Positions 12,118 to 57,374 of a stretch of 64,000 bases of DNA are shown piece by piece. Each line of letters begins with the position of its first letter. Position 1 is the stretch's first letter. This DNA is from Methanobacteriota archaeon. Lineage in GTDB: Archaea; Thermoplasmatota; Poseidoniia; Poseidoniales; Thalassarchaeaceae. The translations under genes and the position numbers were made by a program. The notes beneath the pieces were generated by a model. It ran no database searches. It worked only from the letters and a program-made list of their open reading frames with translations, and was not told the DNA's origin. The stretch lies in the NCBI GenBank assembly GCA_016845345.1, contig JAERSV010000080.1:8750-72749 (forward strand). The letters are read 5' to 3'.

Positions 12118-13494
12118 ATGGGCGGCGGTTCAATGTTGATACGCGGCGCTGAAATGGTGCTCTCTGATCGCATCGTTGCTGGCGATTTGCGAGTTGTAGC
12201 CGGCAAAATAGAATCAATCGCGATTGGAGGAGGTCTAGTCCCAAATGGGGATGAGATGCTAGTTGAGGGTGAAGGATTGCACCTGATGGCAGGCGCAATT
12301 GACCCTCAAGTCCATTTCAGAGAACCGGGCAACCCAGAGAAAGAAACCATCGGAACTGGCTCTAGAGCCGCAGCAGCAGGTGGTGTGACTTCATTTTTAG
12401 ATATGCCAAATAACAACCCTGCTGCTACTAGTTTGGCGGCGATGCAAGCAAAATTAGATTCATCTGCGGCAACTGCAGTTACAAACTACGGATACTTCAT
12501 TGGAGCAACTCCAAATAACGTGGCAGATTTACAAGAAGCTGTAGGAACTGCTGAAAACCCTTCACCAACTGATGGAATCTGTGGAATCAAAGTCTTCATG
12601 GGTTCTTCAACCGGAGACCTTCTAGTCCACCAACAAGAACATCTTGAGAACATCTTTGCTAACACAGGTGGAATCATCGCTGTCCACGCAGAGGATGAAG
12701 ACCGACTCAACGCGAGATGGCCAGAGTTCCAAGACCGCACCGATATCGCATCACATGCTGAATGGAGAGACCACGAATGCGCGCTCTTGGCAACAAAAAG
12801 GGCGAGTAAACTAGCCAAAGACCACAACCATAGGTTACACGTTTTGCACCTCACAACAGGGGTGGAAGCGGATTGGCTAGCCCAAAACAAGGGTGATTTG
12901 ATAACCACGGAAGTGTGCCCTCAGCACCTCACTTTTGACCAGGATGATGTGGAAAAAATTGGTACTCGTTTGCAGATGAACCCCCCGATTCGATACACAG
13001 AAGACCGTGAAACTCTGTGGCGCCGTCTCAAGGATGGAACGATTGACTGCATCGCTACCGACCACGCACCTCACACCTTAGAGAACAAGGCACTTGGGTT
13101 CCCTGTCGCTCACTCTGGAATGCCTGGAGTAGAAACTTCTCTCCCCCTCATGCTCACACACGCGAAGAATGGAAAATGCTCTGTCTTAGATGTCGCGCGC
13201 TGGATGTGTGAAGGGCCTGCTCAAGTTTATGGCATGAAGAACAAGGGCCGCCTTGAGGAAGGATTTGATGCCGATTTGGTGCTTGTTGATTTAGAAAACT
13301 CACATACCATCCAAGATGCAGACACTTGGACTACTGTTGGATGGACGCCCCTTGCTGGGATGGAATTGACTGGATTCCCACAACTGACTGTTGTAGAGGG
13401 AATTCCAGTTCATGGACGTGGTCTTGGCGGCTCGCTACGCGGCGAGCCTTTGTGTGAATCCGGCGAAGCCGGAACCGCAATTCAATTTGTTTGA
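12118..13494 (+). CDS. pyrC: Dihydroorotase-like cyclic amidohydrolase (DHOase/allantoinase family)
   Basis: It has IDPQVHFREPG (metal-binding HxH) and TDHAPH motifs and a typical ~450-aa length. The start may be the MLIRG Met at 12133. Confidence 0.6.
   Translation: MGGGSMLIRGAEMVLSDRIVAGDLRVVAGKIESIAIGGGLVPNGDEMLVEGEGLHLMAGAIDPQVHFREPGNPEKETIGTGSRAAAAGGVTSFLDMPNNNPAATSLAAMQAKLDSSAATAVTNYGYFIGATPNNVADLQEAVGTAENPSPTDGICGIKVFMGSSTGDLLVHQQEHLENIFANTGGIIAVHAEDEDRLNARWPEFQDRTDIASHAEWRDHECALLATKRASKLAKDHNHRLHVLHLTTGVEADWLAQNKGDLITTEVCPQHLTFDQDDVEKIGTRLQMNPPIRYTEDRETLWRRLKDGTIDCIATDHAPHTLENKALGFPVAHSGMPGVETSLPLMLTHAKNGKCSVLDVARWMCEGPAQVYGMKNKGRLEEGFDADLVLVDLENSHTIQDADTWTTVGWTPLAGMELTGFPQLTVVEGIPVHGRGLGGSLRGEPLCESGEAGTAIQFV
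13427..13480. repeat. Copy 1 of a ~55-nt element with two GC hairpins (GGCTCGC-n5-GCGAGCC and CCGGC-GAA-GCCGG), embedded in the pyrC 3' end
   Basis: It is near-identical to 15971..16022. See findings. Confidence 0.7.
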
Positions 13495-15071
13495 ATTTCA
13501 TCTATTCGTCTGACGATGAACTGAACCCCAACAAAAATGACCAGCAATGTCAACAATGTTGAAACGGCTGATGTGAACGAGTTTTCTTTCATCTGATCTG
13601 AATCATCTTCAGTGTTTTGATTGGATTGAACAACAAATTTGGCTTGCAAATTCTGAATTGACGATAAATCCAAAAGTTGCGCAACTGGTTCTGACTCAAT
13701 CTGTTTTGTAATTCTTGTAAAGGCGGTTTCATTCAAATTGCTATCAGTGAAAATGATAACGGCATCAGGAGTTGGACCACCCATTTCTGCATCACTATAC
13801 TGCTCACTCCCTAATATTGCCATGGATTCATTTGAGAATCGGTGAATGTAGTAGATGTCAGAGATATTTTTCACCAAAACAATTTGTGGGTTTAGTATAT
13901 CGTTTACATTGAGAATTAACGAACTAGCGTTCAAACCCTCACTAACCATTTGCTGACCCGAGATGTTGATAGTTCCAATCCAATTTGCCGTGACAAATAA
14001 GCCACCTGCCTCCGCATTACAAATGAATGATGCTTGAGCACCAGATGACTCATTCACCGCTGCAGTGACTATTCCAGTTACCCCTCCAATGTTGGAAATG
14101 ACCTCAATAAGCATATCCCCATACTTGCCATTGCGTTCAAATTCACTACCGTTGTTGATTATTCCTGTGAACTTGCCAACCACAATCCAGCCTCGACCAT
14201 CCGATAATTTTGTAAAGTCGTTGAAATGCACTCTCTGGTCTACATCTGCCCCACCAAAAAACAGTGGTTGAGTTGTACCGGTTCCACAATCAAAATTTGA
14301 GAGGAATGAATCTAGATTCGCCTGAGTGTATTCACTGCTCGAACCGAATTTCACCAAACCATCATAAGTTCCAATCATAGCACAGTTGTTGTTTTCCATT
14401 GAAATTGAATTAACACTTGAACTACCTGAACCTTTGATTTGTTCAAACCAAACAATATCGCCAGAAGAGGTCAATCTCAGAATAAAACCATCTGTTCCAC
14501 CATCAGATTCGATGTTCCTGCTCCCTAAGTTGAGGGTTCCTTTGAAAGCACCTGCAACGATCATTTCCCCGTCCTGTAAAATTTCCATGTCATTGAAGCG
14601 AATTGATTCGGATGATTCTAGTGAAATAGACCGAATCGGTGACATATTATCGTCAAGAAAAAGAATCAATCCCATACTTTGATTGTCGTTTGAAATTATA
14701 GCATCTGGGGCAGATGAAAATGAACCTAGAATGACCCACCCTGGGTCAGAGTTCTTGATTATTTTAGAGATAGAATCTTCACCACCTGAACCGATGGTCG
14801 CCAGAGATATTACTTCGCTAGATTCGTTCAATCCTAACAAGAAGCCATCGCTCCATCCTTCTGTATTTACCGACCAAGCCCCAATAGCCTTTGCCTGCCC
14901 AAAGAATGTGTTACCCACCACCCAAGTAGTATTGTCCACTTCACCTACACTATTCAATCGAACATAGGTTTGAGACGACGTATTGGCATCAATTTCAATT
15001 TCCGAACCTACTGCAAAAAGGGGTGATAATACAATCATTATCATGAACCAAACTGGAGGGGACAATCTCAT
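13482..15071 (-). CDS. Hypothetical cell-surface protein with signal peptide and C-terminal TM anchor
   Basis: The N-terminal signal is MIMIVLSPLFAVGS and the C-terminal helix is TLLTLLVIFVGVQFIV. The body is beta-rich and Ser/Gly/Asn-rich. Confidence 0.55.
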   Translation of the reverse strand: MRLSPPVWFMIMIVLSPLFAVGSEIEIDANTSSQTYVRLNSVGEVDNTTWVVGNTFFGQAKAIGAWSVNTEGWSDGFLLGLNESSEVISLATIGSGGEDSISKIIKNSDPGWVILGSFSSAPDAIISNDNQSMGLILFLDDNMSPIRSISLESSESIRFNDMEILQDGEMIVAGAFKGTLNLGSRNIESDGGTDGFILRLTSSGDIVWFEQIKGSGSSSVNSISMENNNCAMIGTYDGLVKFGSSSEYTQANLDSFLSNFDCGTGTTQPLFFGGADVDQRVHFNDFTKLSDGRGWIVVGKFTGIINNGSEFERNGKYGDMLIEVISNIGGVTGIVTAAVNESSGAQASFICNAEAGGLFVTANWIGTINISGQQMVSEGLNASSLILNVNDILNPQIVLVKNISDIYYIHRFSNESMAILGSEQYSDAEMGGPTPDAVIIFTDSNLNETAFTRITKQIESEPVAQLLDLSSIQNLQAKFVVQSNQNTEDDSDQMKENSFTSAVSTLLTLLVIFVGVQFIVRRIDEIQTN

Positions 15072-16035: not shown

Positions 16036-18489
16036 TCAGGCCCTATCATCAGAATCTGATGTTGAATCGGAAGTGCCGCTCGCTTCATCTCCTTCATCTT
16101 CACGCGGCTCATCTTCAACATCCTCAGGCTCAGACTCTTCTCCATCAGCCACAATGTAATCATCTTCCCAGCCCCAATAACTTGGGGCATCAATTCTTTC
16201 TGGAAGGCTAACAGAGTCTGAAAGCGCCATCGTACTGTAATTAGTTACAGTCACGCCTTCAGCAGAGAACGCATAGACATAATCACCCATGAAGATGGAG
16301 CGCCTAACATTTGGACTACCGTAGTAATAGGATTCTCTTAGCCCATTTTCTCCATTGTAGAAATCGGAGTGGTCTATTGTGCCATACTTGGTAAGTGTGT
16401 TATTCTCAGCATCAACCTTCACTAGAATCAATTGTGTGACATACTCGTAACCACTGAAAGAGTATTTTCGTCCATCAATTGTCACTTCATCATAGGTGTA
16501 TCGGTAGGTCGAGAGAGGTATTGCCAACAATTCAGCAGGCGCCCAGTAGGTGAATGCCTTATGCTCATAGGTCGCCTCACTGTACGACCATGACCAACTC
16601 CACCAATCCTCACTGTTGCGGTCAATAGGAGCAAGTTGCAAAGCCGATGCCAAGGTTGGGTCAGAGAAGTTCGAGACATCAAACAATGAAATCTGGGTGT
16701 TACCCCAATCCAATCCCAATCCATCTTCGCCACCAGCAATGCCGATTGTCAAGAGATGGTCTTCACTTAGTGGGTGAATGTAGGTTGACACGCCTGAAAC
16801 CTCTAACTCACCAATCACTTGTGGATTAGTTGGGTCTGAAAGGTCAATTGTCCAAAGAGGGTCAATATTTCTGAATGTGACAAGGTATCCCTTCTCACCA
16901 ATGAAACGGCAAGACCAGATGGTCTCTCCTGTAGCAATGCCACCAACATGGCCTATCTGTAGTAATTCATCACCACCGTTCTCATCTGGTGCAAGAACGT
17001 AGACGTCGTTAGTTGGGCCAGCCCAATCTTCGCCATCTAGCCACCAGCGGCCCCAAATGTCCTGAGTTGTAGCAACTCGGATGGTGCCGTTGTATTCTGA
17101 AAGTGAGAACTGGTCGTTGACAGTTCCAGTAACTCGACCTGAGCCGATGTAGGTCGTTATTCCACCATCTGAGATATCAAAAGCATGAATGTTTGTTGCC
17201 TCCACAAAATCATCATTTCGCCAGTACCACCACCAATCATTGGCTGGCTCTGCAAGAATTAGCATATCTTCGCTTGCATAGACTTCAACCCATGAGGATG
17301 AAACGTGGTCTAGTTCGTATTCAATCATGTCGCCAAACAATTCAATTGTCATTACAGTAGTAAATCCGCGTCCAACTGAATCTGCTGCCGCAGAAAATTC
17401 TTCGCAAGTTGCACTAACTGTTGATTGTTCAACAACTGTTCCATCAGCCATTCGCTCATGCATTCTTGGAGAGAAATCTGCTAATGTTAGGCCTGCAATA
17501 ACTTCTAGATTGTAGGCGATTGCCTCATCTACACTTGCATTCCAAATATCTTGGCGTTCTGGGTCGTTGTGGTCAATCTCCCAGTAATTATCAGGAAGAG
17601 TTGGGTAAGTGCGCAATCCTTGTAATTGCGCGTATGAATGCGTCACAGCACGAAGTGTGCCATCAACTAATCTTGCAGTTTGATAAGAACCGTCAAGGTA
17701 TAGTTCGCGGTCAATTTGTGGGTCTGAACGGTCAGTTATATTCATCACTGTGAACTTCACTTTGTTGCTGTATCGATAGTATGAGTAAATGCTGTCACCC
17801 TCAGCATTATCTGCCATCATAGCAAGGCGGATAGGATCATCAGAAGGTAGATTCCAATAGGAAACATAAGAGATGATCACGAGTTGATTTCCATTAACAA
17901 GCATCTGCATTGGAGAACCCTCCAATGCCGTACTAGATTCCAGAGTAACGTTGCCAAACTCAGGCACTCCCAAAATTACCAACTGACCGTTGTTAATCAT
18001 GTAGATATGATATCCATCGGTTTTGAGGAAGTCTGCTTCATCAACACCTTCTTCCTGATTATTTGTCTCTGAATATTCGCCTTCTCGGTCTCCAGACCCA
18101 GAAGTGCTTGGTGGCGATGAACTATCCATTGTTTGAGTACTATCTCCGTCACTTGCCATTTCAGCAGCTGCAGTATCGACCATTATGTCATCTTCCATAA
18201 AGCCACCACGGAATCCCCAAGAATTCCAATGCCAGTATGATGCCTGGTCAAGGCCAACCATCATTTCTTCAGCAAGAGAGTTTCGTAGATCTTCTTCAAG
18301 TTCTGCACACCCATCATATTGGTTCAAAACGGGAGAAGAACGTACCCGATTACCGAGGAGTAACTCGGGAGAAATCCAGTCAATATTCTCTTCATTTTCA
18401 TTATCTATGGGATTTTCTAATGTTCCCAAACAGCCAGCCAAAAGCATTGAAGCCAGCACAATCAAAACCATAACAGGTGTTCTTGCCAT
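16036..18489 (-). CDS. Large secreted protein (817 aa) with lipobox-like signal, Trp-rich beta-propeller-like body and acidic C-terminal tail
   Basis: The signal is MARTPVMVLIVLASMLLAGCLG. The C-terminus is EDEPREDEGDEASGTSDSTSDSDDRA. The 21-nt shared promoter motif lies 31 nt upstream. Confidence 0.55.
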   Translation of the reverse strand: MARTPVMVLIVLASMLLAGCLGTLENPIDNENEENIDWISPELLLGNRVRSSPVLNQYDGCAELEEDLRNSLAEEMMVGLDQASYWHWNSWGFRGGFMEDDIMVDTAAAEMASDGDSTQTMDSSSPPSTSGSGDREGEYSETNNQEEGVDEADFLKTDGYHIYMINNGQLVILGVPEFGNVTLESSTALEGSPMQMLVNGNQLVIISYVSYWNLPSDDPIRLAMMADNAEGDSIYSYYRYSNKVKFTVMNITDRSDPQIDRELYLDGSYQTARLVDGTLRAVTHSYAQLQGLRTYPTLPDNYWEIDHNDPERQDIWNASVDEAIAYNLEVIAGLTLADFSPRMHERMADGTVVEQSTVSATCEEFSAAADSVGRGFTTVMTIELFGDMIEYELDHVSSSWVEVYASEDMLILAEPANDWWWYWRNDDFVEATNIHAFDISDGGITTYIGSGRVTGTVNDQFSLSEYNGTIRVATTQDIWGRWWLDGEDWAGPTNDVYVLAPDENGGDELLQIGHVGGIATGETIWSCRFIGEKGYLVTFRNIDPLWTIDLSDPTNPQVIGELEVSGVSTYIHPLSEDHLLTIGIAGGEDGLGLDWGNTQISLFDVSNFSDPTLASALQLAPIDRNSEDWWSWSWSYSEATYEHKAFTYWAPAELLAIPLSTYRYTYDEVTIDGRKYSFSGYEYVTQLILVKVDAENNTLTKYGTIDHSDFYNGENGLRESYYYGSPNVRRSIFMGDYVYAFSAEGVTVTNYSTMALSDSVSLPERIDAPSYWGWEDDYIVADGEESEPEDVEDEPREDEGDEASGTSDSTSDSDDRA

Positions 18490-18795: not shown

Positions 18796-19683
18796 TCAAG
18801 ACAAAGCAGATTCACGGACAACAGATAGTTGTCCATGACCAAGGTCTGAAAGTTTCCAGGTCGCCTTACGACCTTTTCCATCCTTATCGATTAACTCTCG
18901 CTCTTGCAGTTGTTTCAGGTGGTAAGCCATCAATTGTTTTGACGCTTCTAACTTTGTTCTGATTTCAACAGTTGAAATCCCCAAATCCCCTGCGCTGGAG
19001 AGTACCTCCAAAATTGCTCTTTGCATACCGGTAACGGGACTCTCAAGCTCATACAATTTCTTAGGGTCAATTCCCGTAATTGCATATCTTCTACGCCTAC
19101 CATCTTGCCAAGAAATCAACTCTCCAGCCTTTTCTAATTGGTGCAAATGGTACGCGGTTACGCCATTGGCTAGTGCGAGAGCATCGCGAAGTGCAGAGAA
19201 GTGTATCCCAGGGTGTGCCTCAACATAACCCTCAATTCGGCCGCGTGTTTGAACATCTTTCTCTTTACCATGAAGTTTCGCCAAAAGTGGACCGGCTAGA
19301 GCCAAGACAAGACCTGTCTTCACCCCCTCACTGACTATCACACCTACTCCAAGTGAGCCGACCAATCCAATGGTTACAAGGGCTAGAAGTAGCGCGGCAA
19401 TGATTGAGGTGAATCCTACAGTTGCTATTTCGCCTGCTCCATCCGCTGCAAGCGGTTCATCATTTCTAGAATCGGCTGATTCTGGTGTAGCACCACTGCT
19501 ATCATCCTCCTCGGCGCTATCATCTGTAGCGGCCATTTCTGCAACAAAATTTTCTTCTTCGTCGACTTGTTGTTCCTCTTGAGGCGTGAAATAATCAATC
19601 AGCAAAGCGCTGTTGTAAGCTGTTACAAGAAGGCCTAACACCGCTATTAGCGCTAACAGCCGGTATCCAACAACTCGGTTCAT
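18796..19683 (-). CDS. Membrane-tethered transcription regulator with two N-terminal-region TM helices, an acidic linker and tandem winged-HTH domains
   Basis: The TM helices are LLALIAVLGLLVTAY and IIAALLLALVTIGLVG. Two wHTH-like segments are GIHFSALRDALALANGVTAYHLHQLEKAGELISWQDGRRRRY and ISTVEIRTKLEASKQLMAYHLKQLQERELIDKDGKGRKATW. The start was chosen at the MNRVV Met (19683) because the TATA-like motif sits only 19 nt from the upstream Met at 19713. Confidence 0.5.
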   Translation of the reverse strand: MNRVVGYRLLALIAVLGLLVTAYNSALLIDYFTPQEEQQVDEEENFVAEMAATDDSAEEDDSSGATPESADSRNDEPLAADGAGEIATVGFTSIIAALLLALVTIGLVGSLGVGVIVSEGVKTGLVLALAGPLLAKLHGKEKDVQTRGRIEGYVEAHPGIHFSALRDALALANGVTAYHLHQLEKAGELISWQDGRRRRYAITGIDPKKLYELESPVTGMQRAILEVLSSAGDLGISTVEIRTKLEASKQLMAYHLKQLQERELIDKDGKGRKATWKLSDLGHGQLSVVRESALS

Positions 19684-19718
19684 GTTGACTCCTGAGAACA
19701 GGATTGCACCCATAACGA

Positions 19719-19879: not shown

Positions 19880-21802
19880 TCATTCAACTTCATTTGATTT
19901 ATTGCCATTAGCAATCGCTATTATTAGAACTAAAATTACTAAAATTAGTGGTACTGTATATGTGATAATATCAGCACTTCCGGAGGTATCTGATGGTTCG
20001 TTATTACCACTTGTAACCTCTTTATTTGCTAAACTGCATTCCATTTCATCGAGCACTTGCTCGGAAAAGAACACATTGCACTGGATTTTCTCAATTTCAG
20101 TGTTTCTAAGAATTATATCGGCTAAAGTTGTGCTATCTATCTGGTCTTGGATATCCTCCATATCTGAAAATTCCGAACCATAATACAGCCTGTCACCATC
20201 TCTCAATCTTGTGAATTGCTCTTTGATTATGACATGCATCGTCTCTCCGAGAGCTGAATTTTCGAGGTGTTCTTCTGCCAACATTCCAATCAATGCATCA
20301 ACACTGTCAACATCAGGATATGTGTTGTTCAAGGCTTCAATAGTTGTATTGTCGCTTGTGAAATCACTCCAATTCGTATATCGTGCTAATCCAAATGCTT
20401 CGCGCACGGTGTTGAAATCAGGTACCCCGTGGTCTCGTCCTCGTTGAGTATCAATGGCACACAAATCCATACCCCCTGCACCTGGAGGGCCAAACATTTG
20501 GTTTCGTAAATCGTCGACGAACATCAAATCATTTTCTGGTTGAACATTGAAGGCAAGACCGCGCAATATAGGCCCAATCCCACCGCCCTCGGTAATTGGT
20601 GTAACATCAAAGAATCCCTCCCTAAGTGCGAGATGACCCCCTGTTGCCGTCATTCGTGACTCATTCAGTCTTAACATCGAACTTCCAATTTGACTATGAC
20701 CCATGCGGAATGCAACTGTTGCAAACTCATTTGAAATGGCTGGGTTAATTGTCGAATCATATCCACTGTAGGAATCTAATTCAATTCCCAAAGATGGCAA
20801 GAATTCATTGTAGGTGATTGACTCAATCAATCCGATATTTATGTGCCGTGCATATTGGTAAATCTGCTCATCAGACCAGTCAGGATTCCTATCCAAGATT
20901 TCACCAGCCAAACGGTTGTGTTCCCTAACAAATAAAATATGCATAGAAAGTAATGCTACGTGCTCATTTGCTCTCGCATCTCCTGCCACGAATGAATTAG
21001 AGAAATTGAAGCCAGCAAATGACATGCCTGGTGTTGTAGGGTCTTCTGCATAATTTGCTTGGGGCAATAAATCACCTTCATCAAAATCACTAACTTTCAT
21101 CCTACCATCTTGGTATTCTCGCAACCAATTCGCTCGTCCTTCATCACTGCCATATACTACTGAACCATCAATCCAAGTTGAAATCGTGTTAGGATGTTCT
21201 CTCTGATTTAGTGGGTCTCCGTCCCCCGTGCCCTCAGCCACTAATGAACGGAAAAATCTCATTTGTAAACCGCCAGGGAATCCCATCCATTCATCGTTTT
21301 CTGAAATTGGAATATATGCTGTATCCGGTTGATCTTGATTTGGTGTCCTACCATCTTGAGTTGTCGTATGGTCAATATCATGGGTGATGAACTGTCCCCA
21401 CAGCCAGTTGTAGTCAGACAATCCTCGTGAATCAGGGTGTGACTGATCTTCTTGACAAAGGGAATTGCTAATTTCACGTGGGTTCGGAATATCCTCACGG
21501 TCCCAAAAAGTGAGGTTTTCACCATCAGTTGTAGGATATCTCTCTGCGAATCGAGAAAGTTCCGACCCGACTACCCCATATTCAGGGTGTTCGATATTTA
21601 CCCCAGAACCATCATATCCATACTGGGCCCCAGCATCGATGACAGATTCATCTGTTGAGGCATAGGTCGTAGCACCATCCTCCTTTTCAATACTTGAAGC
21701 CGACACTGTTGCCAATCCTAACAACATGAAAAGTGCAACTGTTAATGATGCAAATCTTTTGCGATTTGAGACTTCGTTATTTGATTCAAAATTTCTTGGC
21801 AT
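19880..21802 (-). CDS. Animal-haem-peroxidase (peroxidase-cyclooxygenase superfamily) homologue, secreted with a C-terminal TM anchor. The catalytic motifs are intact.
   Basis: It has the distal GQFITHDIDH, the Ca-binding loop WIDGSVVYGS, GDARANEH (catalytic Arg and Glu), SMHILFVREHNRLA, and QRGRDHGVPDFN (putative proximal His). The signal peptide is LTVALFMLLGLATVSASS and the C-terminal helix is VPLILVILVLIIAIA. Confidence 0.75.
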   Translation of the reverse strand: MPRNFESNNEVSNRKRFASLTVALFMLLGLATVSASSIEKEDGATTYASTDESVIDAGAQYGYDGSGVNIEHPEYGVVGSELSRFAERYPTTDGENLTFWDREDIPNPREISNSLCQEDQSHPDSRGLSDYNWLWGQFITHDIDHTTTQDGRTPNQDQPDTAYIPISENDEWMGFPGGLQMRFFRSLVAEGTGDGDPLNQREHPNTISTWIDGSVVYGSDEGRANWLREYQDGRMKVSDFDEGDLLPQANYAEDPTTPGMSFAGFNFSNSFVAGDARANEHVALLSMHILFVREHNRLAGEILDRNPDWSDEQIYQYARHINIGLIESITYNEFLPSLGIELDSYSGYDSTINPAISNEFATVAFRMGHSQIGSSMLRLNESRMTATGGHLALREGFFDVTPITEGGGIGPILRGLAFNVQPENDLMFVDDLRNQMFGPPGAGGMDLCAIDTQRGRDHGVPDFNTVREAFGLARYTNWSDFTSDNTTIEALNNTYPDVDSVDALIGMLAEEHLENSALGETMHVIIKEQFTRLRDGDRLYYGSEFSDMEDIQDQIDSTTLADIILRNTEIEKIQCNVFFSEQVLDEMECSLANKEVTSGNNEPSDTSGSADIITYTVPLILVILVLIIAIANGNKSNEVE

Positions 21803-21804
21803 TT

Positions 21805-23715
21805 TTATTCCTCCTCGATTTCTTTTTCCTCTAGGTTCTCTATTTCTCTTCCTGAAAATACTACTACCGCTATCAACATTAATGCTATCATTATCCCTAC
21901 ATAGGTGCTCGTTTTAGTTGAACTTACCCCATCATTTCCTCCTGAAATGAGCGGAGCATCTGAATTTGCCAGATGGCACTGAAAACTGCTGGCATCGCTC
22001 TCAGCAAAGAATACATCGCATTGAATCGATTCAATTCCTGTATTTCGGAGGATAATATCAGACAACCGCAGAGAATTGAACTCACTGGTTAACGAATTTA
22101 ACTCAGCATCATTCTCATACCAGAATCTATCTGCATCACGCAGTCTTTGGAACTGGTCCAATACCAACATCTGTTGGGTTTCCCCATAGATTGAATATTC
22201 GAGTCTATCTTCTGCCATTACACCGATATATGCATCGATGCTATCAACATCTAGATACGCTGATGCTAATTTTTGTTGTGAATCAACATCTGAACTGATA
22301 TCACTCCAATTCGTGACCCTCTCAAGCCCAAGACCTTCTCTTAATGAATTGTAATCTGTGAGTCCACGGTCACGGCCTCGTTGGATGTCCATTGCACAAT
22401 CATCCATCCAGCCACCCCACATTGCCCCACTCATCAAGTTGCGAAGACTGGGGATAACTGCCAAATCCATTTCTCTTTGAGTATCGTATGCAGCACCTCG
22501 AATCGTGGTATCAATTCCACCAACCTCAATTAGTGAAGATGAGGTCCAAAAGCCATCCCTCAAATCCAAATGTCCGACTTCAGTTTCGTTGAGTCCTTCA
22601 TCAAATTGCAGCCAACCATCAGCCATCTGACTACCTGTAGCAAATCCTGCTAACAAGATGTATTCATTACTTAATTGTGGATTAATAGTTGAATTATAAC
22701 CGGTATAATCATCCAAATTAATTCCAATGGATGGGAGATATTCATTGTATGTAATCGCTTGAATTTCAGCCTGAACTAATTTCTTCGTCCGCTGAAATAC
22801 CTGTTCATCATTCCAATCAGAATTGCGCTCGCTCACACCATCTGCAATTCGGTTGTGTTCCCTGATGAACAAGACTTGCAGTGAAGTGAGACCAATGTGC
22901 TCTAGGTTCCTTGAATCACCGGTAAAAAATTGGAGATTGGGGTCATCCCCCGACGCACTCTCTACATATTCAGTTATGCGAGCAGGTACCATGTCCCAAC
23001 CTCGAACGTCGGTTACTTTTAGACGCCCCCCCTCACCACTGCGAAGATAATCTTGAAATTCTACACTAAAGGAATATATTGAGCCCCCATCAATCCAACT
23101 ACTCACCTCATTCGGATACTCCCGAGGATTTTCTTCACCATCTCCTGTACCAGAAATGAATTCAGTTCGTAAATATTTGATTCGTGAATCTTCTACACCT
23201 CCTGGATTCATAATTCCATCATCAATTGGAATCAGAATGTGTGCCTCTTCCAGTCCACCTTCATGAGAAGAGTCTTGATGAGTGGTGAGTTGCATATCGT
23301 TGTTGATAAATTCAGACCAAAGTACATTCATGTTTGAAAGACCAAGTGGACTTGGTGTAACACTTGTTTCTACACAAACTTGATTCGAAATAATTCGTGG
23401 ATTTTCATATTCGGGGTGCGCCATTTCAGAGATATTGTCATCAAAAGATGGTGAAGTTAATCGATTGATTTGGCTGTCAACCGCACCCCAATCGTTGTTA
23501 GCAATATTATTGCCACTACCATCATTATTTCTCATTTCTTGCGGTGCCATTTCATCATCAGATGCGAACAAACTCGACTCTTCTTTAGCAACTGGTGTTG
23601 CGGCTGTTGGAAGCGATAACGAGACCGATAAGAGCAAAATTGCCATTATTTGTGAGAAGAAGCGAGTTGCAGTGAAGCCTCGAGAACGCTTTTGCAACCT
23701 ATAGGGGGTAGACAT
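21805..23715 (-). CDS. Paralogous peroxidase-family protein with degenerate active site (putative pseudo-peroxidase), secreted with a C-terminal TM anchor
   Basis: It aligns to the upstream paralogue (GDSRNLEH, LFIREHNRIA), but the distal His is replaced (SEFINNDMQ), the Ca loop is degenerate (WIDGGSIYSFS) and RDHG has become RDRG. It lies 2 nt downstream of the first paralogue. Confidence 0.65.
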   Translation of the reverse strand: MSTPYRLQKRSRGFTATRFFSQIMAILLLSVSLSLPTAATPVAKEESSLFASDDEMAPQEMRNNDGSGNNIANNDWGAVDSQINRLTSPSFDDNISEMAHPEYENPRIISNQVCVETSVTPSPLGLSNMNVLWSEFINNDMQLTTHQDSSHEGGLEEAHILIPIDDGIMNPGGVEDSRIKYLRTEFISGTGDGEENPREYPNEVSSWIDGGSIYSFSVEFQDYLRSGEGGRLKVTDVRGWDMVPARITEYVESASGDDPNLQFFTGDSRNLEHIGLTSLQVLFIREHNRIADGVSERNSDWNDEQVFQRTKKLVQAEIQAITYNEYLPSIGINLDDYTGYNSTINPQLSNEYILLAGFATGSQMADGWLQFDEGLNETEVGHLDLRDGFWTSSSLIEVGGIDTTIRGAAYDTQREMDLAVIPSLRNLMSGAMWGGWMDDCAMDIQRGRDRGLTDYNSLREGLGLERVTNWSDISSDVDSQQKLASAYLDVDSIDAYIGVMAEDRLEYSIYGETQQMLVLDQFQRLRDADRFWYENDAELNSLTSEFNSLRLSDIILRNTGIESIQCDVFFAESDASSFQCHLANSDAPLISGGNDGVSSTKTSTYVGIMIALMLIAVVVFSGREIENLEEKEIEEE

Positions 23716-23872
23716 CTCTCAACCACTTTTTACGAGTAGTTCCTCGGGTTAGAACCTTTTTCTATGGAATGAACTTAAATTTTTTGAACTGTACGATTTA
23801 ATTGTGTGGGGATGTTTCATAGGTAAAATCTCTGTGGTTAATGTTGCCGAAGTACGCGCGAGGGGTTCCATA

Positions 23873-26143
23873 ATGGCAATAAATCAAATTCAACGCCCCA
23901 AAAAAATTGCAATAATTTTGGCAATTCTAACGATTGCAAGCCTTCTTTCAGCACTTCCCTCTCCAGCACTTGCACATTCACAGGGTGTACCAACTGAAAC
24001 AATGGTTACCTTCACCGATGTTTCCGAAGCAAGTGGCATAAGTATCATTGACACTGGTCCAAAAACAAATTGGGTTAGTTATGGACCGGGAATTTCGGTT
24101 GATGATTGTGACCAGGATGGAGACATGGATGTCATGGTTACTGCAAGATACGACCATCTATCTTACGAAAATTCCGAATTTGAATCCGGTTCAATTCAAT
24201 TTATGTTGAACAATGGAGATGGAACATTCACAGACTGGACCATTGAATCTGGCATGAATTTAGAAAATACAACTGTAATCGGGTCTTCTTGGGCAGATTA
24301 CGATAATGATGGTGACAAAGATGTTTATCTCAGCGCTTTTGGCGAATCAGATGTTGATAATTTAGAATCGGGTGAGAAAAATATCCTCTTCAAAAATATT
24401 GGAAATTGTCAGTTTACTGATGTCACTGACCTGACTGGTGTGGGCGAAGGTGCTCAAGCCACCGCCGTTGTAGTAAATGGAAACGTCACGGAAGTTGTAA
24501 TGCAAAATGTAGGGTCAAATTATGCAACATCTGGCGGACTTGCTCCTGCAATTTATTTCCGTGATGCCTACGGTAATGGCGCAGTCGCTGAGGCTATTGT
24601 CACAGTTGACGGTGCTATATCATCGGTTTCCATTACCAATGGAGGCGAGGGTTACGACTCTGAAAATCCACCTGAAGTGATATTTGTCAGCGGTGTGGCT
24701 AACTACGGCCATAGCACAACTGCAATTTGGTCTGACTACGACCATGATGGTGATGTTGACCTCTATTCAATGAATCTCGGCATTGTCGATGAAGAATTAT
24801 ACTGGGCGCGTACAGAAACCAACTTTCTCTATCGAAATGACGGCGATATTGACGGCGACGGTGAGATAGAATTCAGTGATGTAACAAATTTCGCTGGTGT
24901 CAGCGGCCAAGCCGAAGTCTCAGATTCGCCGAATCAATTCTTCCTTTCAGGACTCTACAGAATGGACCAAGCCAGTCCTTCAAACCCCTCAACCATGGCA
25001 CAAATCGCTTCCGCAGATTATCTAGGAACTGGGCTTTCCTTTGCAGGATTATGGTTTGATTATGATAATGATGGCTGGGAAGATCTCTACGTTGCCTCAG
25101 ATTTTGGTATGTCACCAATCTATCACAATAATCGCGACGGTACTTTCACTGTGGTTACAAAAGAGTTGGAAATGGACCTGCCCGGTACTGGCATGGGAGC
25201 ACATGCAGGGGATTGGGATGGAGATGGAGACCTTGACCTGTGTCACTCAAACTTCGGGCCAAACTACCTTTGGGAAAACGATGGTGGGAATTCATTCACT
25301 GAGAGAAGCCGTGACTTGGGATTCCGTGATGCAGGCACCGCTGGCTCATTTGTTGCGGTGAACTGGGCTTGCCAATTCTTTGACTACGACCTTGATGGGG
25401 ATTTGGACATCTTCTTTGGAGTTGGAAGAATCAACCGCTTTACAGCCTACAATAATAATACATTATACAGAAATGATGGTGATATTGATGGTGATGGTTT
25501 TGTCAATTTTGTTGATATTAGTGGCGAAATCGGCTTAAGAACTGGAATTAATGGAAACAAAACCATGGGAGTTTCAATCTTTGATTACGATAATGATGGT
25601 GACTTAGATATCATGCTTGGTCACTCAGACAGAGCACCTCAATTATTCTCAAACAATGCTGTTGAGGAAACCAGCCGCCATTGGCTAAAAGTTCAACTTG
25701 AAGGACGACAGACAGATGTCGCTACATCCGAAAGTGGTGGACAGCGCGATTATTCAAACAGTTATGGTACTGGATGCTTAGTTACCGTGACCCTCAAAGA
25801 TGGTCACCAATTAAGTCAACACGTGTATGCTGGAAGCGGATTCTTAGGAAGTAACGAACCAACTGTTCACTTTGGTTTGGATACTGATGATTCGGTAAAA
25901 TCAGTTGAGGTTGTTTGGTCGACGGGGATTACCCAAATTGAAAGAAATGTTGAAGCAGACCAAACTCTTGTGATGGAGGAACCAACGAGTTTGTTCTTCA
26001 TGCTTTTTGGTATTGGATTACATCAAAATATTAATTCAGCCCTCTATCTATTATTCACTATCATCTTGATTGGTGCTGTATTCAAAATTTATAACACCAA
26101 AAATGATTCAACAACTGAAGATAAAAACTCAGAAGAAGAGTAA
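23873..26143 (+). CDS. FG-GAP repeat / CRTAC1-ASPIC(UnbV)-like cell-surface protein with signal peptide and C-terminal TM
   Basis: It has repeated Ca-binding FG-GAP-type motifs (YDNDGDKDVYLS, DYDHDGDVDLYS, DYDNDGWEDLYVASDFG, DWDGDGDLDLCHSNFGPNYLWEN, DYDLDGDLDIFFG, DYDNDGDLDIMLG) and a C-terminal ASPIC-like segment (GSGFLGSNEPTVHFGL). The ORF is open from 23804; ATG 23873 was chosen because GGTAAAATC sits 42 nt upstream. Confidence 0.6.
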   Translation: MAINQIQRPKKIAIILAILTIASLLSALPSPALAHSQGVPTETMVTFTDVSEASGISIIDTGPKTNWVSYGPGISVDDCDQDGDMDVMVTARYDHLSYENSEFESGSIQFMLNNGDGTFTDWTIESGMNLENTTVIGSSWADYDNDGDKDVYLSAFGESDVDNLESGEKNILFKNIGNCQFTDVTDLTGVGEGAQATAVVVNGNVTEVVMQNVGSNYATSGGLAPAIYFRDAYGNGAVAEAIVTVDGAISSVSITNGGEGYDSENPPEVIFVSGVANYGHSTTAIWSDYDHDGDVDLYSMNLGIVDEELYWARTETNFLYRNDGDIDGDGEIEFSDVTNFAGVSGQAEVSDSPNQFFLSGLYRMDQASPSNPSTMAQIASADYLGTGLSFAGLWFDYDNDGWEDLYVASDFGMSPIYHNNRDGTFTVVTKELEMDLPGTGMGAHAGDWDGDGDLDLCHSNFGPNYLWENDGGNSFTERSRDLGFRDAGTAGSFVAVNWACQFFDYDLDGDLDIFFGVGRINRFTAYNNNTLYRNDGDIDGDGFVNFVDISGEIGLRTGINGNKTMGVSIFDYDNDGDLDIMLGHSDRAPQLFSNNAVEETSRHWLKVQLEGRQTDVATSESGGQRDYSNSYGTGCLVTVTLKDGHQLSQHVYAGSGFLGSNEPTVHFGLDTDDSVKSVEVVWSTGITQIERNVEADQTLVMEEPTSLFFMLFGIGLHQNINSALYLLFTIILIGAVFKIYNTKNDSTTEDKNSEEE

Positions 26144-27234: not shown

Positions 27235-28599
27235 TCACAGATTGCCATTACAGACTGGACAATACTGCCAACTTTGTTCTACCCCAATCCCACAACGAGA
27301 GCAATTTTTTCCCGACTGAATGTTGTGGTGAATTGGTTGGGCTTGTGCTTGTGGAGCATGTGGTCCGCCACTTACCAAATCTGAAACTGAATCAAGGGCA
27401 GATTGCTCAGGATGGTTCGAAGGAGCCGCTGGCCACCCAGTATCAGGCATCTGTGGCGGTTCTTGAGATTGCAACCCTATTGCCGGGGCTGATGGAGAAC
27501 TTGAACCGATTGGAGCGCGCTTTGGTGTGACGGCTTGAGAGGGAGGTTGCACTGGTTCTGTCGGTGTGGGTTGTGCAATTTGTGGTTCTACAACAGGCTC
27601 AGGCTGTTCTACTACAGGTGGTGATGGTGAAATACCCTCTTGAAGAGTTGAAACTGGTTCTGCATCCACTGGTGAAACCGGCACATCTATATCTGCAGCA
27701 GCAGAAAACTGAGAAGCGAATGCATCGCTAGCATCAACCTGCTTAACCTCTGTTGGTCGATTTGATTCAATTTCAAGTGCTGGTTCCTTTGCAATAACCA
27801 TGGGTTTAGTTACCGCTTCTTCAGTCGGTTTTTGAGATACCACATTTACCGGTTGAGGAGATGTTGGTGCTGGCGCTGGCGCTACTACTGGCGCAGGCGA
27901 AGGCACCATGGCTGGCGCTGGTGATGGCACAGACGCAGGCGCTGGACCAACTTGCGGTGTTGGCGTCGGCGCTACGACAGGAGCCGGAGCTGGCTGAGTT
28001 GCATGAGTTGGTGCACCAAGACATGAAATTGGCGTCACGGACCCCGTCTTGGCCTGCTCAATTGCGATATTCAATTCTTGAGATAATTGTAACAAGACTG
28101 CTTTGTTGGCGGCCGGTGACGCGACCAATCCTGCATATTGTGAAACATAATGTCCGAGTAATGGTAATCCACCGATTAAATGCCCCAGTCCGAACATTTT
28201 GAGTAGAGAAAAGATATCTGTTAGTGATTCAAGTGCATTCATCTCGTGTTCGACAAAACCTGGGTGTACTCCTACGTTACCCTCCGAATCTTCTCCCCCA
28301 AGGAAAAACCTGAGTGGATCGCTGAGAGAAACTAGACCAAAAGGCCCTGTCAGGAGATAATATATCTCGCCACCCTCACAACTAAGTCTTTGAGCAGCCT
28401 CTTCAAAACCAAATTCTGGTTGTAAAACCAAATCAATAGCGATTGAGAAAAACTCACCCATTCCATTTATTGGGTCTGTCTGATTAAGGTGCAAGATAAT
28501 GTCAGCCGAATCTGTTACACCGAAGTATGCTGCAGCTTCGTCCACAGCAATTCCTTGCGGCAATGAGGCTCCTTCAACCTCAACCTCGCTTGGATTCAT
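27235..28599 (-). CDS. Hypothetical protein with N-terminal globular domain, ~200-aa Pro/Ala/Val-rich linker and C-terminal CxxC...CxxC zinc ribbon
   Basis: It has PAPAPVVAPTPTPQVGPAPASVPSPAPA repeats and the C-terminus CSRCGIGVEQSWQYCPVCNGNL. Its start lies 27 nt after the stop of the giant gene upstream, on the same strand. Confidence 0.5.
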   Translation of the reverse strand: MNPSEVEVEGASLPQGIAVDEAAAYFGVTDSADIILHLNQTDPINGMGEFFSIAIDLVLQPEFGFEEAAQRLSCEGGEIYYLLTGPFGLVSLSDPLRFFLGGEDSEGNVGVHPGFVEHEMNALESLTDIFSLLKMFGLGHLIGGLPLLGHYVSQYAGLVASPAANKAVLLQLSQELNIAIEQAKTGSVTPISCLGAPTHATQPAPAPVVAPTPTPQVGPAPASVPSPAPAMVPSPAPVVAPAPAPTSPQPVNVVSQKPTEEAVTKPMVIAKEPALEIESNRPTEVKQVDASDAFASQFSAAADIDVPVSPVDAEPVSTLQEGISPSPPVVEQPEPVVEPQIAQPTPTEPVQPPSQAVTPKRAPIGSSSPSAPAIGLQSQEPPQMPDTGWPAAPSNHPEQSALDSVSDLVSGGPHAPQAQAQPIHHNIQSGKNCSRCGIGVEQSWQYCPVCNGNL

Positions 28600-28625: not shown

Positions 28626-31600
28626 TCAATTTAATCCTGCTTCATTGACAATATATCTAGATTGTTTTGCATTCCAACCACTGGTTTGCAATTGACGAAG
28701 AATATTTCTTTCTGCTTCACCTGAGGCAATTGATTCACGGGCTTCACCAAGGGACTTTTCATAGTTTGCAGAATCTCTTGGAGTGAAAAGGTCCTCCCAC
28801 TTTTTCGGTGCCGTGGACTTTTTCGATTTCCTAGCTCCTTCCTCTGATTTGGTTCCACTTGGCTTCTTTCGTGTGGACCTTGTCTTTACATTCTCTGGCT
28901 TTGGTGCACCCGCAACCTTGCGAACTTTGCGCGAAGAAGCATCAGCCGGAGGCGCATCATCTGAAACTACGGTCCTGCGTGTTTTCTTGGCTCGAGGTGC
29001 GGGACTTGATGGGCTACTTCCTGCACGGCTTTGAGGCCCTGCACGGCCGGGAGGGCCGGCCGCTCGGCCCGGCGGCCCTCTTGAACCACCTGCGCTACTT
29101 GGGCCTCCTGCTTGAGGACCTCTAGAAGGCCCTCCACCTCCACGACTTGGAGGGGCTGCTCGTGCAGGAGGTGCACCTCGACTAGGTTGATTTCCTCCTA
29201 AGCCAGAAAAGTCCTGTCTTGCCGCAGGTGCGTTCCAACCACCTTGAGATCTTGAAGCAAATATATCATCATCGTCATCTTCTTCAAATTCATCATACAT
29301 ATCATCGTCATCATCATCCCAATCATCACCACCACGGATGATTCTAATGACAACCAATGAGATGATGACTAGAGCCAGTAAAGCCCCTATACCGGCACCG
29401 ATCATTTTCAGCGGCAATGTTGAAGATTCAGTTGAACCGTACCATTCATCGTACCATTCACAAGATTGATATTCTTCAGGAACAATCATTCCTGGACTTA
29501 ATGATGGATTGTAAAAATCCTCCCATTTTGTACATTCATCTACAGCATTACCATCGGCACCGGTTGCGGCTGGACATCCTACTCCTTGGACGCCATCTAT
29601 AACTCCGGGAGTAAATGGACATTCATCGCCTTCAAAACCTGAAATATTGTCACCAAACCCATCTCCATCGTTGTCTTTCCATTGGGTTGGGTCATTGATG
29701 AAAGCGTCAGCCCCTTCTTCAAAACCCCAGCCTGCCGCGGGGTCTGACCAACCATCACCGTCTGTATCAGGGCAACCCCAACGGTCACCGTTAGGTGGGC
29801 CTGTTGAATTACCTGCAACATTTGTACAACTATCACCTTGGAAACCACTCAATTCGTTTCCAAAGCCATCCATATCTAAGTCACCCCACTGGGTAGACTC
29901 AAGAGGAAATTTATCTACGTCATCAAAGAAGCCGTCGCCGTCTGTATCAATGTCATTTCGTGGACAACCGACTTCATTCACTTCGGCACCAGCAATAGTC
30001 CCAGCACATTCATCTAAGGCGTTTGAAACACCATCATTATCCTCATCCAGTTGATATGTAGCACATCCTGTTACATTATTGAAAAACTCATCAATTCGAA
30101 GCAGATCTGTGTCTGGGCATTCATCCTCAATGTCAGGGACACCATCCTCATCAGTATCAAGCGTCAATTGGTCCTGACTACAACCGTTTACATCAACCTC
30201 CGCAAGCGCAGTCGTGTTAGCACAACGGTCTAATGAATTTGAGACACCATCACCGTCGTCATCCTTTTGATTTTCAGAACAACCCTTCCATTGACCAGAG
30301 GTATCAACCACCTCCCCAATTGTAGTATTACCACAAATGTCGTCATCATCGATGATACCATCGCCATCAGAATCCTCTGCAGGAAGGGGGCATCCGCGTC
30401 CACCATCCCCATTCGCATAGCCAAATTGTTGGGGGCAAAAATCTCCATTTGTACGATTTGTGAAATCTCCATAGCCATCGCCATCGGAATCTCTCCATTG
30501 TTCTGGATTAGAGCTATTTGAATCGGCGTTGCCCGTCGGGTGTGCACTCTCTAAAGTATCTGGATTAGACCAGCCATCCCCATCATCATCTAGACATCCA
30601 AATCTATCAACACTTGAGTTACCCCAAGAAACTGGACAAGAATCGGGAGTAGTGCCTGTGGGATTATCACCAAAACCATCTAGATCGGTGTCATTCCACT
30701 GGGTTGGGTCCTCATTGAAAGCATCTTGCCGCCAAGCATCAGTCGTGGTATTATCTCCATAACCATCCCCATCTTTGTCATGCCATTGTTGAGAACAATT
30801 GGCGATACTACCACACGGTTCACCCGCATTTCCATTTCCACCCGGCCAATTATCAGCGCATCCATTTCGGCCATCTGAATCTATTGCATTACATTGGCTA
30901 CGATTGTAAATCCATGTGCTTTCTTGCGCATTTTGGGCTATGTGAGGGTCTGACCAACCATCACCATCTGTATCTAAACAGCCACCACGGTCATGAGCAG
31001 AAAAACCCTGTAACTCAGGGCACTGGTCACCTGTCCAATCAATATTGAACCAATCAGGTTGATTATCACCATCAACATCATGGCCGTTGAATAAACGTAG
31101 GGTTTCGTTGGCAAATTGGAAATTATGGTTATCTCCCCAACCATCATTATCCAAGTCCTCCCATTGGTTTCCATTCAAGGGATAAATATCAGTTGAAGAA
31201 CTCCCACAGCAATCAGGTCCGTGGTTATCATAATGGCCATCTTCATCTGTGTCTCTCTGTTGATGCCAATTCACAGGGTTTTGGTCGCCATCTGTACTCC
31301 AACCATCACCATCAGAGTCTGCACAGCCTTTTCTGTCAACCCATGAGTTACCCCTAGTGTATAGACAAATATCAACAGCGTCTGCCCATCCATCTAGGTC
31401 TTGGTCACTACAGCCGAAGTATCCCCATCTACTTCCTCTATCAAGTAAATCAGTACCACTGTTAATGCACTGGTCGGGGGTAGGACCACCCGGATTATCT
31501 CCGTAGCCGTCAGCATCAGCATCATTCCACTGACCACCAACACGAGGGACCTCATCCCATGGTAGAGGCACGAAATCGCGGTCCCAATCATTGTAGATGC

Positions 31601-50099: not shown

Positions 50100-50336
50100 A
50101 TGATGGCTGTCGGATTTGTTCTAATTATTACTAAAGCGGGATTTGAGCGAGATGTTCGCTCAGCCCTTGACAGCATTGAACTCGTCACTGGGCGCTGGGG
50201 CGTTTTCGGTGAATTTGACATCATCACCAAAATCGAGGCTGATGATGATGCTGCCCTTACCCGCTGTATTGTAGAAAATATCCGAACCATCGAGGGGATT
50301 ACCGAAACTCGAACTTTAATTGGCGCAGAAATCTAA
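50100..50336 (+). CDS. Second stand-alone RAM domain protein (tandem paralogue)
   Basis: It is 78 aa with the same fold pattern (VLIITKAG...GRWGVFGEFDIITKIEADD). It starts 7 nt after the first. Confidence 0.6.
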   Translation: MMAVGFVLIITKAGFERDVRSALDSIELVTGRWGVFGEFDIITKIEADDDAALTRCIVENIRTIEGITETRTLIGAEI

Positions 50337-57300: not shown

Positions 57301-57374
57301 GAGAAAAGTGGAACAATCAAAAGCGCAAAAATTGTTTGTCTGCGTGATTTGCTAATCAACTTCCAAGACCCCAA
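54336..57374 (-). CDS. Large (1012 aa) hypothetical secreted protein with signal peptide, C-terminal TM and basic stop-transfer (RRKKRKR)
   Basis: The signal is IFALLIVPLFSSLPVLA and the TM helix is LFVLLAIIFILFYL followed by RSRRKKRKRLAKE. Confidence 0.55.
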   Translation of the reverse strand: MGSWKLISKSRRQTIFALLIVPLFSSLPVLAEPPPGTPEVTNTYCATWNNGTGICDDYNFAHDLTQSNEWVRSNYHFEMHNTTSITMTLEWELHEFNRSVIGLQDMDLGGGFDMNNSGAPVDYIRNYLGYTTNSGLQVRQLILNEFSATVESLVNDTYGGSAQVESQIVNQVTIEGQNIACTDDMNEDSIDEVFGLPNNAFNPPLCLRSVAQIQIDSDILGLSGSDLDVERGFQGLLTMGAEVTSNFTLVARAGHRSTFELIPPNYATFSSVGGGGTLIPHQQGNVQYNSGLWVTDGLSMQGNENTLINASIISVLRDGTTSAVSIDQYVDHGISIYAEVDLRDATNSRVNAEMDIHYLPKTVLDDWGFSLGDGNIQLPWITSDGIRMAHEYGLLDLDDFSEMIPLQDVESAILNASEIEIGMNPATWKQADASGGLNFTHTPSVTCAELVPVTHCLSGGSAMDGSFPVTLVTSSEPFSADPLEKLTNLISGQSGLENITSIPQEDVSALLSVLVYQHQFDTSFISDSLPDWLPPTEIEVTILLPDWISSDVGDPRSITLSASSASGEETPLAITGPNPYHRHWSDPICDVSAACSDSSPDLICQSDWRSCIKIHTVLHLPEFEVHEWSQEIELAVEGQISVELYRIEVPQVLIEDTGLEIETIPSDLIRHIIAYGDEQEGGVNGLLGKTIEVPLGDEIHQLELSNDGLQAFANSLSDMMNDKISTMQESDDLLTVDLSSLHFSASVDRMERPYNGIINDDKPIKFILQLDKTMIRAKYLDGAITISTSSAQGAIPSLMNGMLDVFNIRNAGESDGVVTLPPEPVVEEVSPIFMVEDVDSGTDSNMDGNSNNDQDLVIRPALVFELTMPAGLHLEFTSSLGRDEQNTVEGNRQHILYRAPLCIGENTNNCEAEQSDEVSLQFTVGYGFIIQELMSYLFVLLAIIFILFYLRSRRKKRKRLAKEQTLIQVRSAKSNTYEVERELLGISPTSATSGSGADIDWTAGIDLDDDNW

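Follow-up and report, generated by a model that had tools for sequence, protein, structure and literature searches.

A predicted surface-anchored haem peroxidase and a haem-ligand-less paralogue encoded in tandem in a Thalassarchaeaceae genome

A 64,000 nt stretch of contig JAERSV010000080.1 from a Thalassarchaeaceae genome assembly, here termed the window, carries two adjacent genes of the animal haem peroxidase family (PF03098, An_peroxidase). The product of gene A appears to have the residue set of a complete peroxidase, with no more than one haem ester bond possible. The product of gene B, judged by its residue pattern, is a predicted conserved pseudoenzyme, i.e., the haem ligands have been lost while the fold is retained under purifying selection. 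The locus may represent a cell-surface peroxidase module of Marine Group IIb (MGIIb) archaea, which would consist of the peroxidase A and a haem-free partner B, probably acting together with a CRTAC1-like protein encoded next to B. This functional proposal is given about an even chance of being correct.

The gene pair and its haem-site residues

Both open reading frames (ORFs) are found on the minus strand, gene B (636 amino acids, aa) at positions 21805-23715 and gene A (640 aa) at 19880-21802, in exact agreement with the lengths and the 2 nt separation given in the original prediction. That prediction placed the intact copy upstream; however, in the direction of transcription the haem-dead B is the 5′ gene of the pair and A lies downstream of it. 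Inspection of the B/A junction (21795-21825, minus strand) shows the sequence GAG GAG GAA TAA aa ATG, in which the TAA stop codon of B is followed by 2 nt and then by the ATG of A. A purine-rich GAGGAGG is located approximately 8 nt 5′ of this ATG.

Membership in the peroxidase-cyclooxygenase superfamily, first proposed from short motifs, is borne out by a PF03098 profile search. With a profile cut-off of 25 bits, A scores 473 bits (E 1.5e-141, profile positions 4-530 of 530) and B scores 386 bits (E 2.6e-115), essentially end to end. The two proteins share 39% identity over 600 residues. All of the motifs quoted earlier are found, namely GQFITHD, GDARANEH, REHNR, RGRDHG and DGSVVYGS in A, with SEFINND, GDSRNLEH, REHNR, RGRDRG and DGGSIYS as their counterparts in B. 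A Pfam scan of both proteins shows PF03098 only; the LRR, Ig and vWC domains of peroxidasin are not detected in it, and none of the NCBIfam models matches A or B.

The best sequence match of A in the PDB is a peroxidase from Cyanobacterium TDX16 (8s6c_A, E 2e-107), to which the alignment is unambiguous, and the second is DdPoxA from Dictyostelium (6erc, E 2e-88). The residue roles defined for DdPoxA are a distal Gln97-His101-Arg233 triad, the ester-forming Glu236 and a proximal His325-Asn403-Arg406 group (PMC5787809). The distal His that had been assigned in A by motif stands up to this alignment. Gln137, His141, Arg277 and His369 correspond to DdPoxA Gln97, His101, Arg233 and His325. Glu280 aligns with the ester-forming Glu236 and Arg454 with the proximal Arg406. 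Thus A keeps the distal Gln-His-Arg triad, the ester Glu and the proximal His, and it also keeps the Ca2+ site. The proximal partner, Asn403 in DdPoxA, is Asp451 in A. The second ester-forming position, Asp in LPO and LspPOX and Ile100 in DdPoxA, is Thr140 in A.

Residue states were tabulated over a MAFFT alignment of 226 homologues, and over 56 homologues. In the larger alignment the second ester position is Thr or Ser in every archaeal A-type sequence, and among the 56 homologues the proximal partner is Asp in all archaeal members, as opposed to the Asn of characterised enzymes. Two haem ester bonds, one through Asp and one through Glu, are typical of Families 1, 2 and 6. Because the second ester-forming Asp is replaced by Thr140, the residues of A appear to allow at most one covalent haem link, through Glu280.

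Gene B presents a different pattern. The distal Gln is Glu135, the second ester position is Asn138 and the distal His is Asn139. On the proximal side, FRMGHS of A has become GFATGS: the proximal His is Gly, and the adjacent propionate-binding Arg (Arg366 in A) is Phe. In addition, the RGRDH motif reads RGRDR. The catalytic Arg (Arg269), the ester-forming Glu, the proximal partner Asp and the proximal Arg are still present. The original prediction had recognised the distal His to Asn change, and this part stands, but the loss of the proximal His and of its neighbouring Arg had been missed. These losses are common to all of the approximately 27 B-clade clusters (defined at 90% identity), which span 45-90% identity to the window B protein. 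Throughout the clade the distal motif is E/D-x-x-x-N and the proximal His position is G, S or E. Eleven positions are fixed in B and fixed otherwise in the other 121 aligned homologues; these include Q to E, H to N, F437 to S, G444 to W, H458 to R and H512 to R.

The Ca2+ loop of B had been described as degenerate, which overstates the change. With the ligand assignment in B, which we take over from MPO, Asp140, Ser205, Trp207 and Asp209 are retained, and only the fifth position is altered, being Gly211 here and Ser in most orthologues. The disulfide cysteines are also kept. An AlphaFold2 (AF2) model of B, built from a 139-sequence alignment, has a pLDDT (predicted local distance difference test score) of 87.8 and a pTM (predicted template modelling score) of 0.84. 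In a Foldseek search the best fold match of the model is 8s6c (template modelling score 0.91, E 2e-48), the score to DdPoxA is 0.90, and further top fold matches are the DUOX1 ectodomain, MPO and LPO. The only internal segments with a pLDDT below 50 are the loop 252-256 and the B-clade-specific 430-436 region. A prediction from 15 B-clade sequences alone is of low confidence (pLDDT 35).

In the 430-436 region (window position approximately 22410-22430, minus strand), B displays the insertion motif WGGWMDDC where haem-binding homologues have GAGGMDLC. The invariant Trp436 of B might occupy the former haem pocket.

The ratio of non-synonymous to synonymous change (dN/dS), determined by the Nei-Gojobori method (NG86) on orthologue pairs with unsaturated dS, is 0.10-0.16 for B (about 0.13) and 0.05-0.13 for A, and non-synonymous change is about 1.5 times faster in B than in A. 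With a dN/dS of about 0.13, B does not behave as a decaying gene, and its ORF is intact in 14 species. The loss of both His residues across the B clade, the retained fold and the purifying selection together strengthen the earlier pseudo-peroxidase label. The clade is narrow: B-like sequences make up few clusters among 1.84 billion representatives at 50% identity.

In a neighbour-joining tree of 56 homologues, B forms a long branch that belongs to neither the archaeal nor the bacterial groups. This placement was set aside as a likely case of long-branch attraction, and shared derived characters were used instead. Three such characters are common to A, to B and to A2, the solo archaeal peroxidase clade: a C-terminal extension that contains a cysteine pair (IQC[DN]VFF...C.L.N), one C-terminal transmembrane helix followed by a short acidic tail, and the Asn to Asp change at the proximal-partner position. 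The bacterial homologues in the same alignment lack them, except that an Okeania protein (P0161) ends in a hydrophobic stretch. Because A, A2 and B share these characters and bacterial counterparts are lacking in that alignment, the origin of B is best read as a duplication inside the archaeal lineage.

A Kyte-Doolittle scan of A, B and the CRTAC1-like neighbour shows in each protein an N-terminal hydrophobic segment that follows basic residues, and a single C-terminal transmembrane helix. This agrees with the signal peptide and C-terminal anchor previously proposed for A and B, with the N-terminus being signal-like by simple hydropathy. The ectodomains of all three proteins are strongly acidic, and the B product has an acidic EEE tail after its C-terminal helix. 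Hydropathy supports a predicted surface display of both A and B.

Archaeal setting and conserved neighbourhood

The contig is genuinely archaeal (Thalassarchaeaceae, MGIIb). Archaeal-type genes are found in the window on both sides of the pair, i.e., RadA (Rad51 family with a helix-hairpin-helix domain), a helicase of the Hel308 type that carries the archaeal helicase domain 4, an HVO_0163-type helix-turn-helix (HTH) protein and a TYW2/Trm5-type methyltransferase. The GC content of the window is even, at 0.38-0.49. The closest homologues with a named source are labelled Ca. Thalassarchaeaceae, Ca. Poseidoniales, Thermoplasmatota or Euryarchaeota. Contamination by bacterial or eukaryotic DNA, which the original prediction had named as an outcome that would overturn it, is excluded by these marker genes and the even GC, and by related loci that all come from Poseidoniales/Thalassarchaeaceae metagenome-assembled genomes (MAGs).

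A survey with a B-clade profile against one genome per GTDB species yields 14 loci, all from Poseidoniales/Thalassarchaeaceae MAGs, and shows that the pair recurs well beyond the window. The gene order across the 14 species loci is orf454, an M29 peptidase, an FG-GAP/UnbV_ASPIC gene divergent from B, then B and A. B is followed by A in 12 of the 14, and the remaining two contigs stop inside B or at its end. No B gene without A directly downstream is found among the 14 loci wherever the contig continues. The coupling is close: the B stop and A start codons overlap (ATGA or TAATG) or are at most 2 nt apart in nine of 11 loci, as they are in the window, and the other two loci have a 45-nt spacer.

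The divergent neighbour of B in the window (23873-26143, plus strand) encodes a CRTAC1-like surface protein with FG-GAP_3 (PF13517, E 6e-33) and UnbV_ASPIC (PF07593, E 6e-20) domains, a signal-like N-terminus and a C-terminal transmembrane helix. Its start was reset to M24, at position 23873, where the orthologue matches begin. The protein matches cartilage acidic protein 1 (PDB 9etn_A, E 1e-13), and its gene is the divergent neighbour of B in all 14 loci. The intergenic region between the two genes (23716-23872) is A/T-rich (AAAAATTTAAG) and is presumed to be a shared promoter region.

Linkage between peroxidases and CRTAC1-like genes is also seen away from the pair. Solo A2-type peroxidase genes are convergent to an FG-GAP_3 + UnbV_ASPIC gene. 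In other Poseidoniales, three protein clusters display an An_peroxidase domain fused to five FG-GAP_3 repeats, an UnbV_ASPIC domain and a C-terminal transmembrane helix. The fusion proteins are 1110 aa (P0114, from an N-terminally truncated gene call), 1189 aa (P0240) and 1199 aa (P0244) in length, and the archaeal Q-T/S-H...D signature is present in all three clusters. Sixteen members make up the P0244 cluster; they are spread over many contigs, of up to 869 kb, and two are named “[Euryarchaeota archaeon]” by NCBI. The linkage thus occurs in three arrangements, divergent, convergent and as an in-frame fusion (window 23873-26143, plus strand; locus L018 9959-11731; locus L016 9816-11195; locus L020 8001-11600), and may provide a handle on the prokaryotic function of the CRTAC1/ASPIC family.

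An AhpC/TSA peroxiredoxin gene and a KatG gene (PF00141) are located 1-2 kb downstream of the fusion gene on the opposite strand (L020 12574-15226; L021 12774-15399), and the surroundings of the gene in this lineage look like a small peroxide-handling neighbourhood. The product of the gene that follows the fusion peroxidase in L015 and L020 (271 aa) was considered as a conserved partner and dropped; the window has no homologue of it, and a histone-fold hint is sub-threshold.

On the 3′ side of A, where contigs continue, a PF09826 beta-propeller gene and/or an HTH regulator gene is found. The next gene downstream of A in the window (18796-19713, minus strand) encodes a membrane winged-helix regulator with HVO_0163_N HTH and MarR-like domains by Pfam, and with hydrophobic stretches around residues 14-39 and 109-139. 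A regulator of this type is also found downstream of A in five loci (L001-L005). From synteny only, it could be an envelope-sensing regulator belonging to the module. The PF09826 protein (817 aa; 16036-18489, minus strand) begins with a lipobox-like sequence (LLAGC) and ends in a very acidic tail, and is syntenic with the module in four of the related loci (L001, L004, L010, L014). On the far side of the CRTAC1-like gene, orf454 (27235-28599, minus strand) accompanies the peroxidase module in 12 of the 14 related loci.

Large ectoproteins are unusually numerous in the window. Giant predicted surface proteins are a 2132-aa FG-GAP protein (28626-35024, minus strand) and a 1606-aa beta-helix protein with PKD/Ig domains (44352-49172, minus strand). 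Long ORFs of 454-1012 aa that show no Pfam match at E <= 0.001 are located at 1888-3882 (plus), 13482-15071 (minus), 27235-28599 (minus; orf454), 37601-39961 (minus) and 54336-57374 (minus). A 739-aa protein (52093-54312, plus strand) with weak matches to AAA/novel-STAND NTPases adjoins UvrC (50333-52102) and may be a conflict-system or signalling NTPase.

Proposed function and alternative explanations

In the proposed module, A would be a type-I membrane-anchored, Ca2+-binding haem peroxidase of the bacterial “peroxidockerin/LspPOX-like” branch. It would bind haem b, link itself to the haem through a Glu280 ester on first exposure to H2O2, and consume ambient H2O2. For DdPoxA, whose single ester bond gives rise to a low Fe(III)/Fe(II) potential, oxidation of iodide and thiocyanate exceeds 1e8 M-1 s-1, with bromide oxidation negligible and chloride oxidation absent (PMC5787809). 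Because A is predicted to share the single ester bond, its substrates by analogy with DdPoxA may be iodide, thiocyanate and phenolics or Tyr, and not chloride or bromide, as expected of a low-potential enzyme. B would be a non-catalytic partner co-translated with A, serving as a scaffold, allosteric or substrate-binding subunit, and both would probably act with the divergently encoded CRTAC1-like beta-propeller protein. The idea of an enzyme/scaffold or regulatory pair, put forward in the original prediction, would be consistent with the conserved tight coupling of the two genes. We infer a physical association of A and B, a role of the CRTAC1-like protein, haem loading of A and a purpose in either surface H2O2 removal or oxidant production. 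A study of 2023 reports katG and gpx for the most part from MGIIa, and PXDN for the most part from MGIIb (PMC10783094). This split, and the AhpC and KatG genes next to the fusion gene, favour a role in the handling of external H2O2.

Several points weigh against this proposal. Functional claims for the archaeal members derive from residue conservation and gene context. The hydrogen-bond partner of the proximal His is Asp, not the Asn of characterised enzymes. Tight coupling and a shared type of anchor could be a mere leftover of tandem duplication, in which case A and B would form no complex. The B loop 430-434, which carries WGGW, is of low confidence in the AF2 model, and because the underlying alignment is dominated by haem-binding homologues, the model is uninformative as to whether the pocket is open or filled. 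The neighbour-joining tree is unable to place B relative to A or A2, given its long branch. We know of no route by which haem would be loaded outside the archaeal membrane. In addition, a preprint notes that MGII seem to be auxotrophic for haem (bioRxiv 10.1101/2021.01.11.426183).

Other explanations of the locus should also be considered. B may have a role that is independent of A, either in binding or adhesion at the surface without enzyme activity, in the manner of peroxinectin, or as a module that binds a ligand, a metal or Ca2+, with the adjacency of the genes reflecting only their duplication history. The faster non-synonymous evolution of B, its own signal-like sequence and transmembrane anchor, and the two loci with a 45-nt spacer in place of overlapping codons are all compatible with such a role. 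Structural haem-less domains with the peroxidase fold do exist; the DUOX1 peroxidase-homology domain is without haem, and it is among the best fold matches of B. However, B is never found without A immediately downstream where the contig continues, and B has diverged to 45% identity without a loss of the gene order or of the close coupling. An independent B is thus possible but unlikely. It is far harder to credit that B is still catalytic, whether by a non-canonical chemistry that uses the retained Arg/Glu and Ca2+ site or by haem or another cofactor held on new ligands. No His, Cys, Tyr or Met substitutes are present at the axial or distal position, the propionate-binding Arg is gone, and members of the clade differ from one another at the proximal position (G/S/E), as is not expected of a ligand. 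These features outweigh the retention of Arg269 and of Glu or Asp at the ester position in all B members, as well as the new invariant residues Asn139, Trp436, Arg450 and Arg504, and the probability of a catalytic B is considered very small.

A different purpose for the whole module, with or without B, would be the oxidative cross-linking or remodelling of a surface layer or of captured organic matter in the manner of peroxidasin, rather than H2O2 detoxification. The repeated association of the peroxidase, by linkage and by fusion, with a CRTAC1-like beta-propeller of the extracellular-matrix type, the membrane anchors that hydropathy predicts for all partners and the many giant surface proteins of the window would suit this purpose. 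Peroxidasin chemistry, however, needs HOBr, and an enzyme with a single ester bond is predicted to be a poor bromide oxidiser (PMC5787809); moreover, the AhpC and KatG genes around the fusion locus suggest peroxide stress. Cross-linking is therefore regarded as improbable. The possibility of an artefact, with B a decaying pseudogene or the contig a bacterial or eukaryotic contaminant, arises from the absence of catalytic residues in B and from a family that is best known in animals and bacteria. Both forms of it were rejected, and its probability is practically nil: dN/dS is low, the B ORF is intact in 14 species, archaeal markers flank the pair in DNA of even GC, and related loci are restricted to Poseidoniales MAGs.

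Of the readings, a peroxidase A with a haem-free partner B at the cell surface is preferred. A more far-reaching form of it, which is doubtful, is an obligate surface heterocomplex of A, B and the CRTAC1-like propeller that oxidises iodide or thiocyanate with photochemical seawater H2O2. In such a case MGIIb, which rank with the most abundant microbes of the surface ocean, would be an unrecognised H2O2 sink and a source of reactive iodine (HOI), and B would be the first dedicated pseudo-peroxidase subunit in a prokaryote.

The family assignment itself is already known, and the novelty of the module is moderate only. The superfamily had been described as essentially unreported in archaea. In line with this, the superfamily review mentions no archaeal members (PMC4420034), but the statement is too strong as it stands, since many archaeal homologues already bear the NCBI name [quoted passage not shown]. 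Targeted literature searches found no published work describing haem peroxidase proteins of Poseidoniales/MGII, and the sole mention is a passing PXDN count (PMC10783094). Within the reach of these searches, what appear to be new are the clade of haem-ligand-less paralogues, the obligatory coupling of this clade to a paralogue with intact residues, the single-ester-bond site predicted across archaeal members, and the CRTAC1-like linkage and fusion.

Poseidoniales are uncultured, globally abundant archaea of the surface ocean that face light-generated H2O2, and MGIIb are largely without KatG. If A does act on iodide or thiocyanate, an abundant archaeal group would be tied to the marine cycling of H2O2 and iodine. 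The single haem ester bond predicted for A has so far been characterised in one amoebal enzyme only. The A/B pair also offers a clean system for the role of the peroxidase fold after haem loss, and the locus provides concrete targets for expression.

Comparison with known systems

The bacterial Family 6 “peroxidockerins” (LspPOX; 8s6c) resemble A in being single-domain An_peroxidase proteins with a distal Gln-His-Arg triad, the ester Glu, the proximal His and the Ca2+ site. They have both ester residues (Asp and Glu) and an Asn proximal partner, whereas archaeal A has Thr and Asp at the two positions concerned. Archaeal A and B further differ from Family 6 by the addition of a C-terminal extension with a Cys pair and of a transmembrane anchor. 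No haem-less tandem partner is seen among the bacterial homologues listed.

DdPoxA is similar to A in that the Asp ester position is substituted, by Ile in DdPoxA and by Thr in A, which leaves one ester bond through Glu. DdPoxA is secreted and extracellular (PMC5787809); A is predicted to be surface-anchored. DdPoxA is unlike A in being a soluble monomeric eukaryotic glycoprotein with an Asn partner, and it lacks a membrane anchor, a pseudoenzyme partner and a CRTAC1-like neighbour.

Peroxidasin (PXDN), whose KEGG label was used in counting the MGII homologues, shares with the pair the same Pfam catalytic domain, a location outside the cell, which for the pair is predicted, and an association with matrix-type proteins. 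It differs in having two ester bonds and additional LRR, Ig and vWC domains; A and B are without these domains and A is without the second ester residue. Peroxidasin produces HOBr for the sulfilimine links of collagen IV.

The DUOX ectodomain is comparable to B, as its peroxidase fold persists although the canonical haem ligands are gone, and as its partner is redox-active. However, the degenerate domains of animals share one polypeptide with either a NOX module or another peroxidase domain, while B is the product of a separate gene and is separately anchored. Two An_peroxidase domains in one protein are found in three clusters, P0287, P0356 and P0379, from spiders (Argiope and relatives), ticks (Rhipicephalus, Dermacentor and others) and the nematode Caenorhabditis auriculariae. 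An assignment of these proteins to bacterial “long peroxicins” was dropped, as the named cluster members are the spiders, ticks and nematode. The proximal His is among the key residues missing from their N-terminal domain, whereas their C-terminal domain is intact, an arrangement that mirrors the order of B and A. The two-domain animal peroxidases are a convergent analogy and not relatives of the pair, and B has degenerated independently within the archaea.

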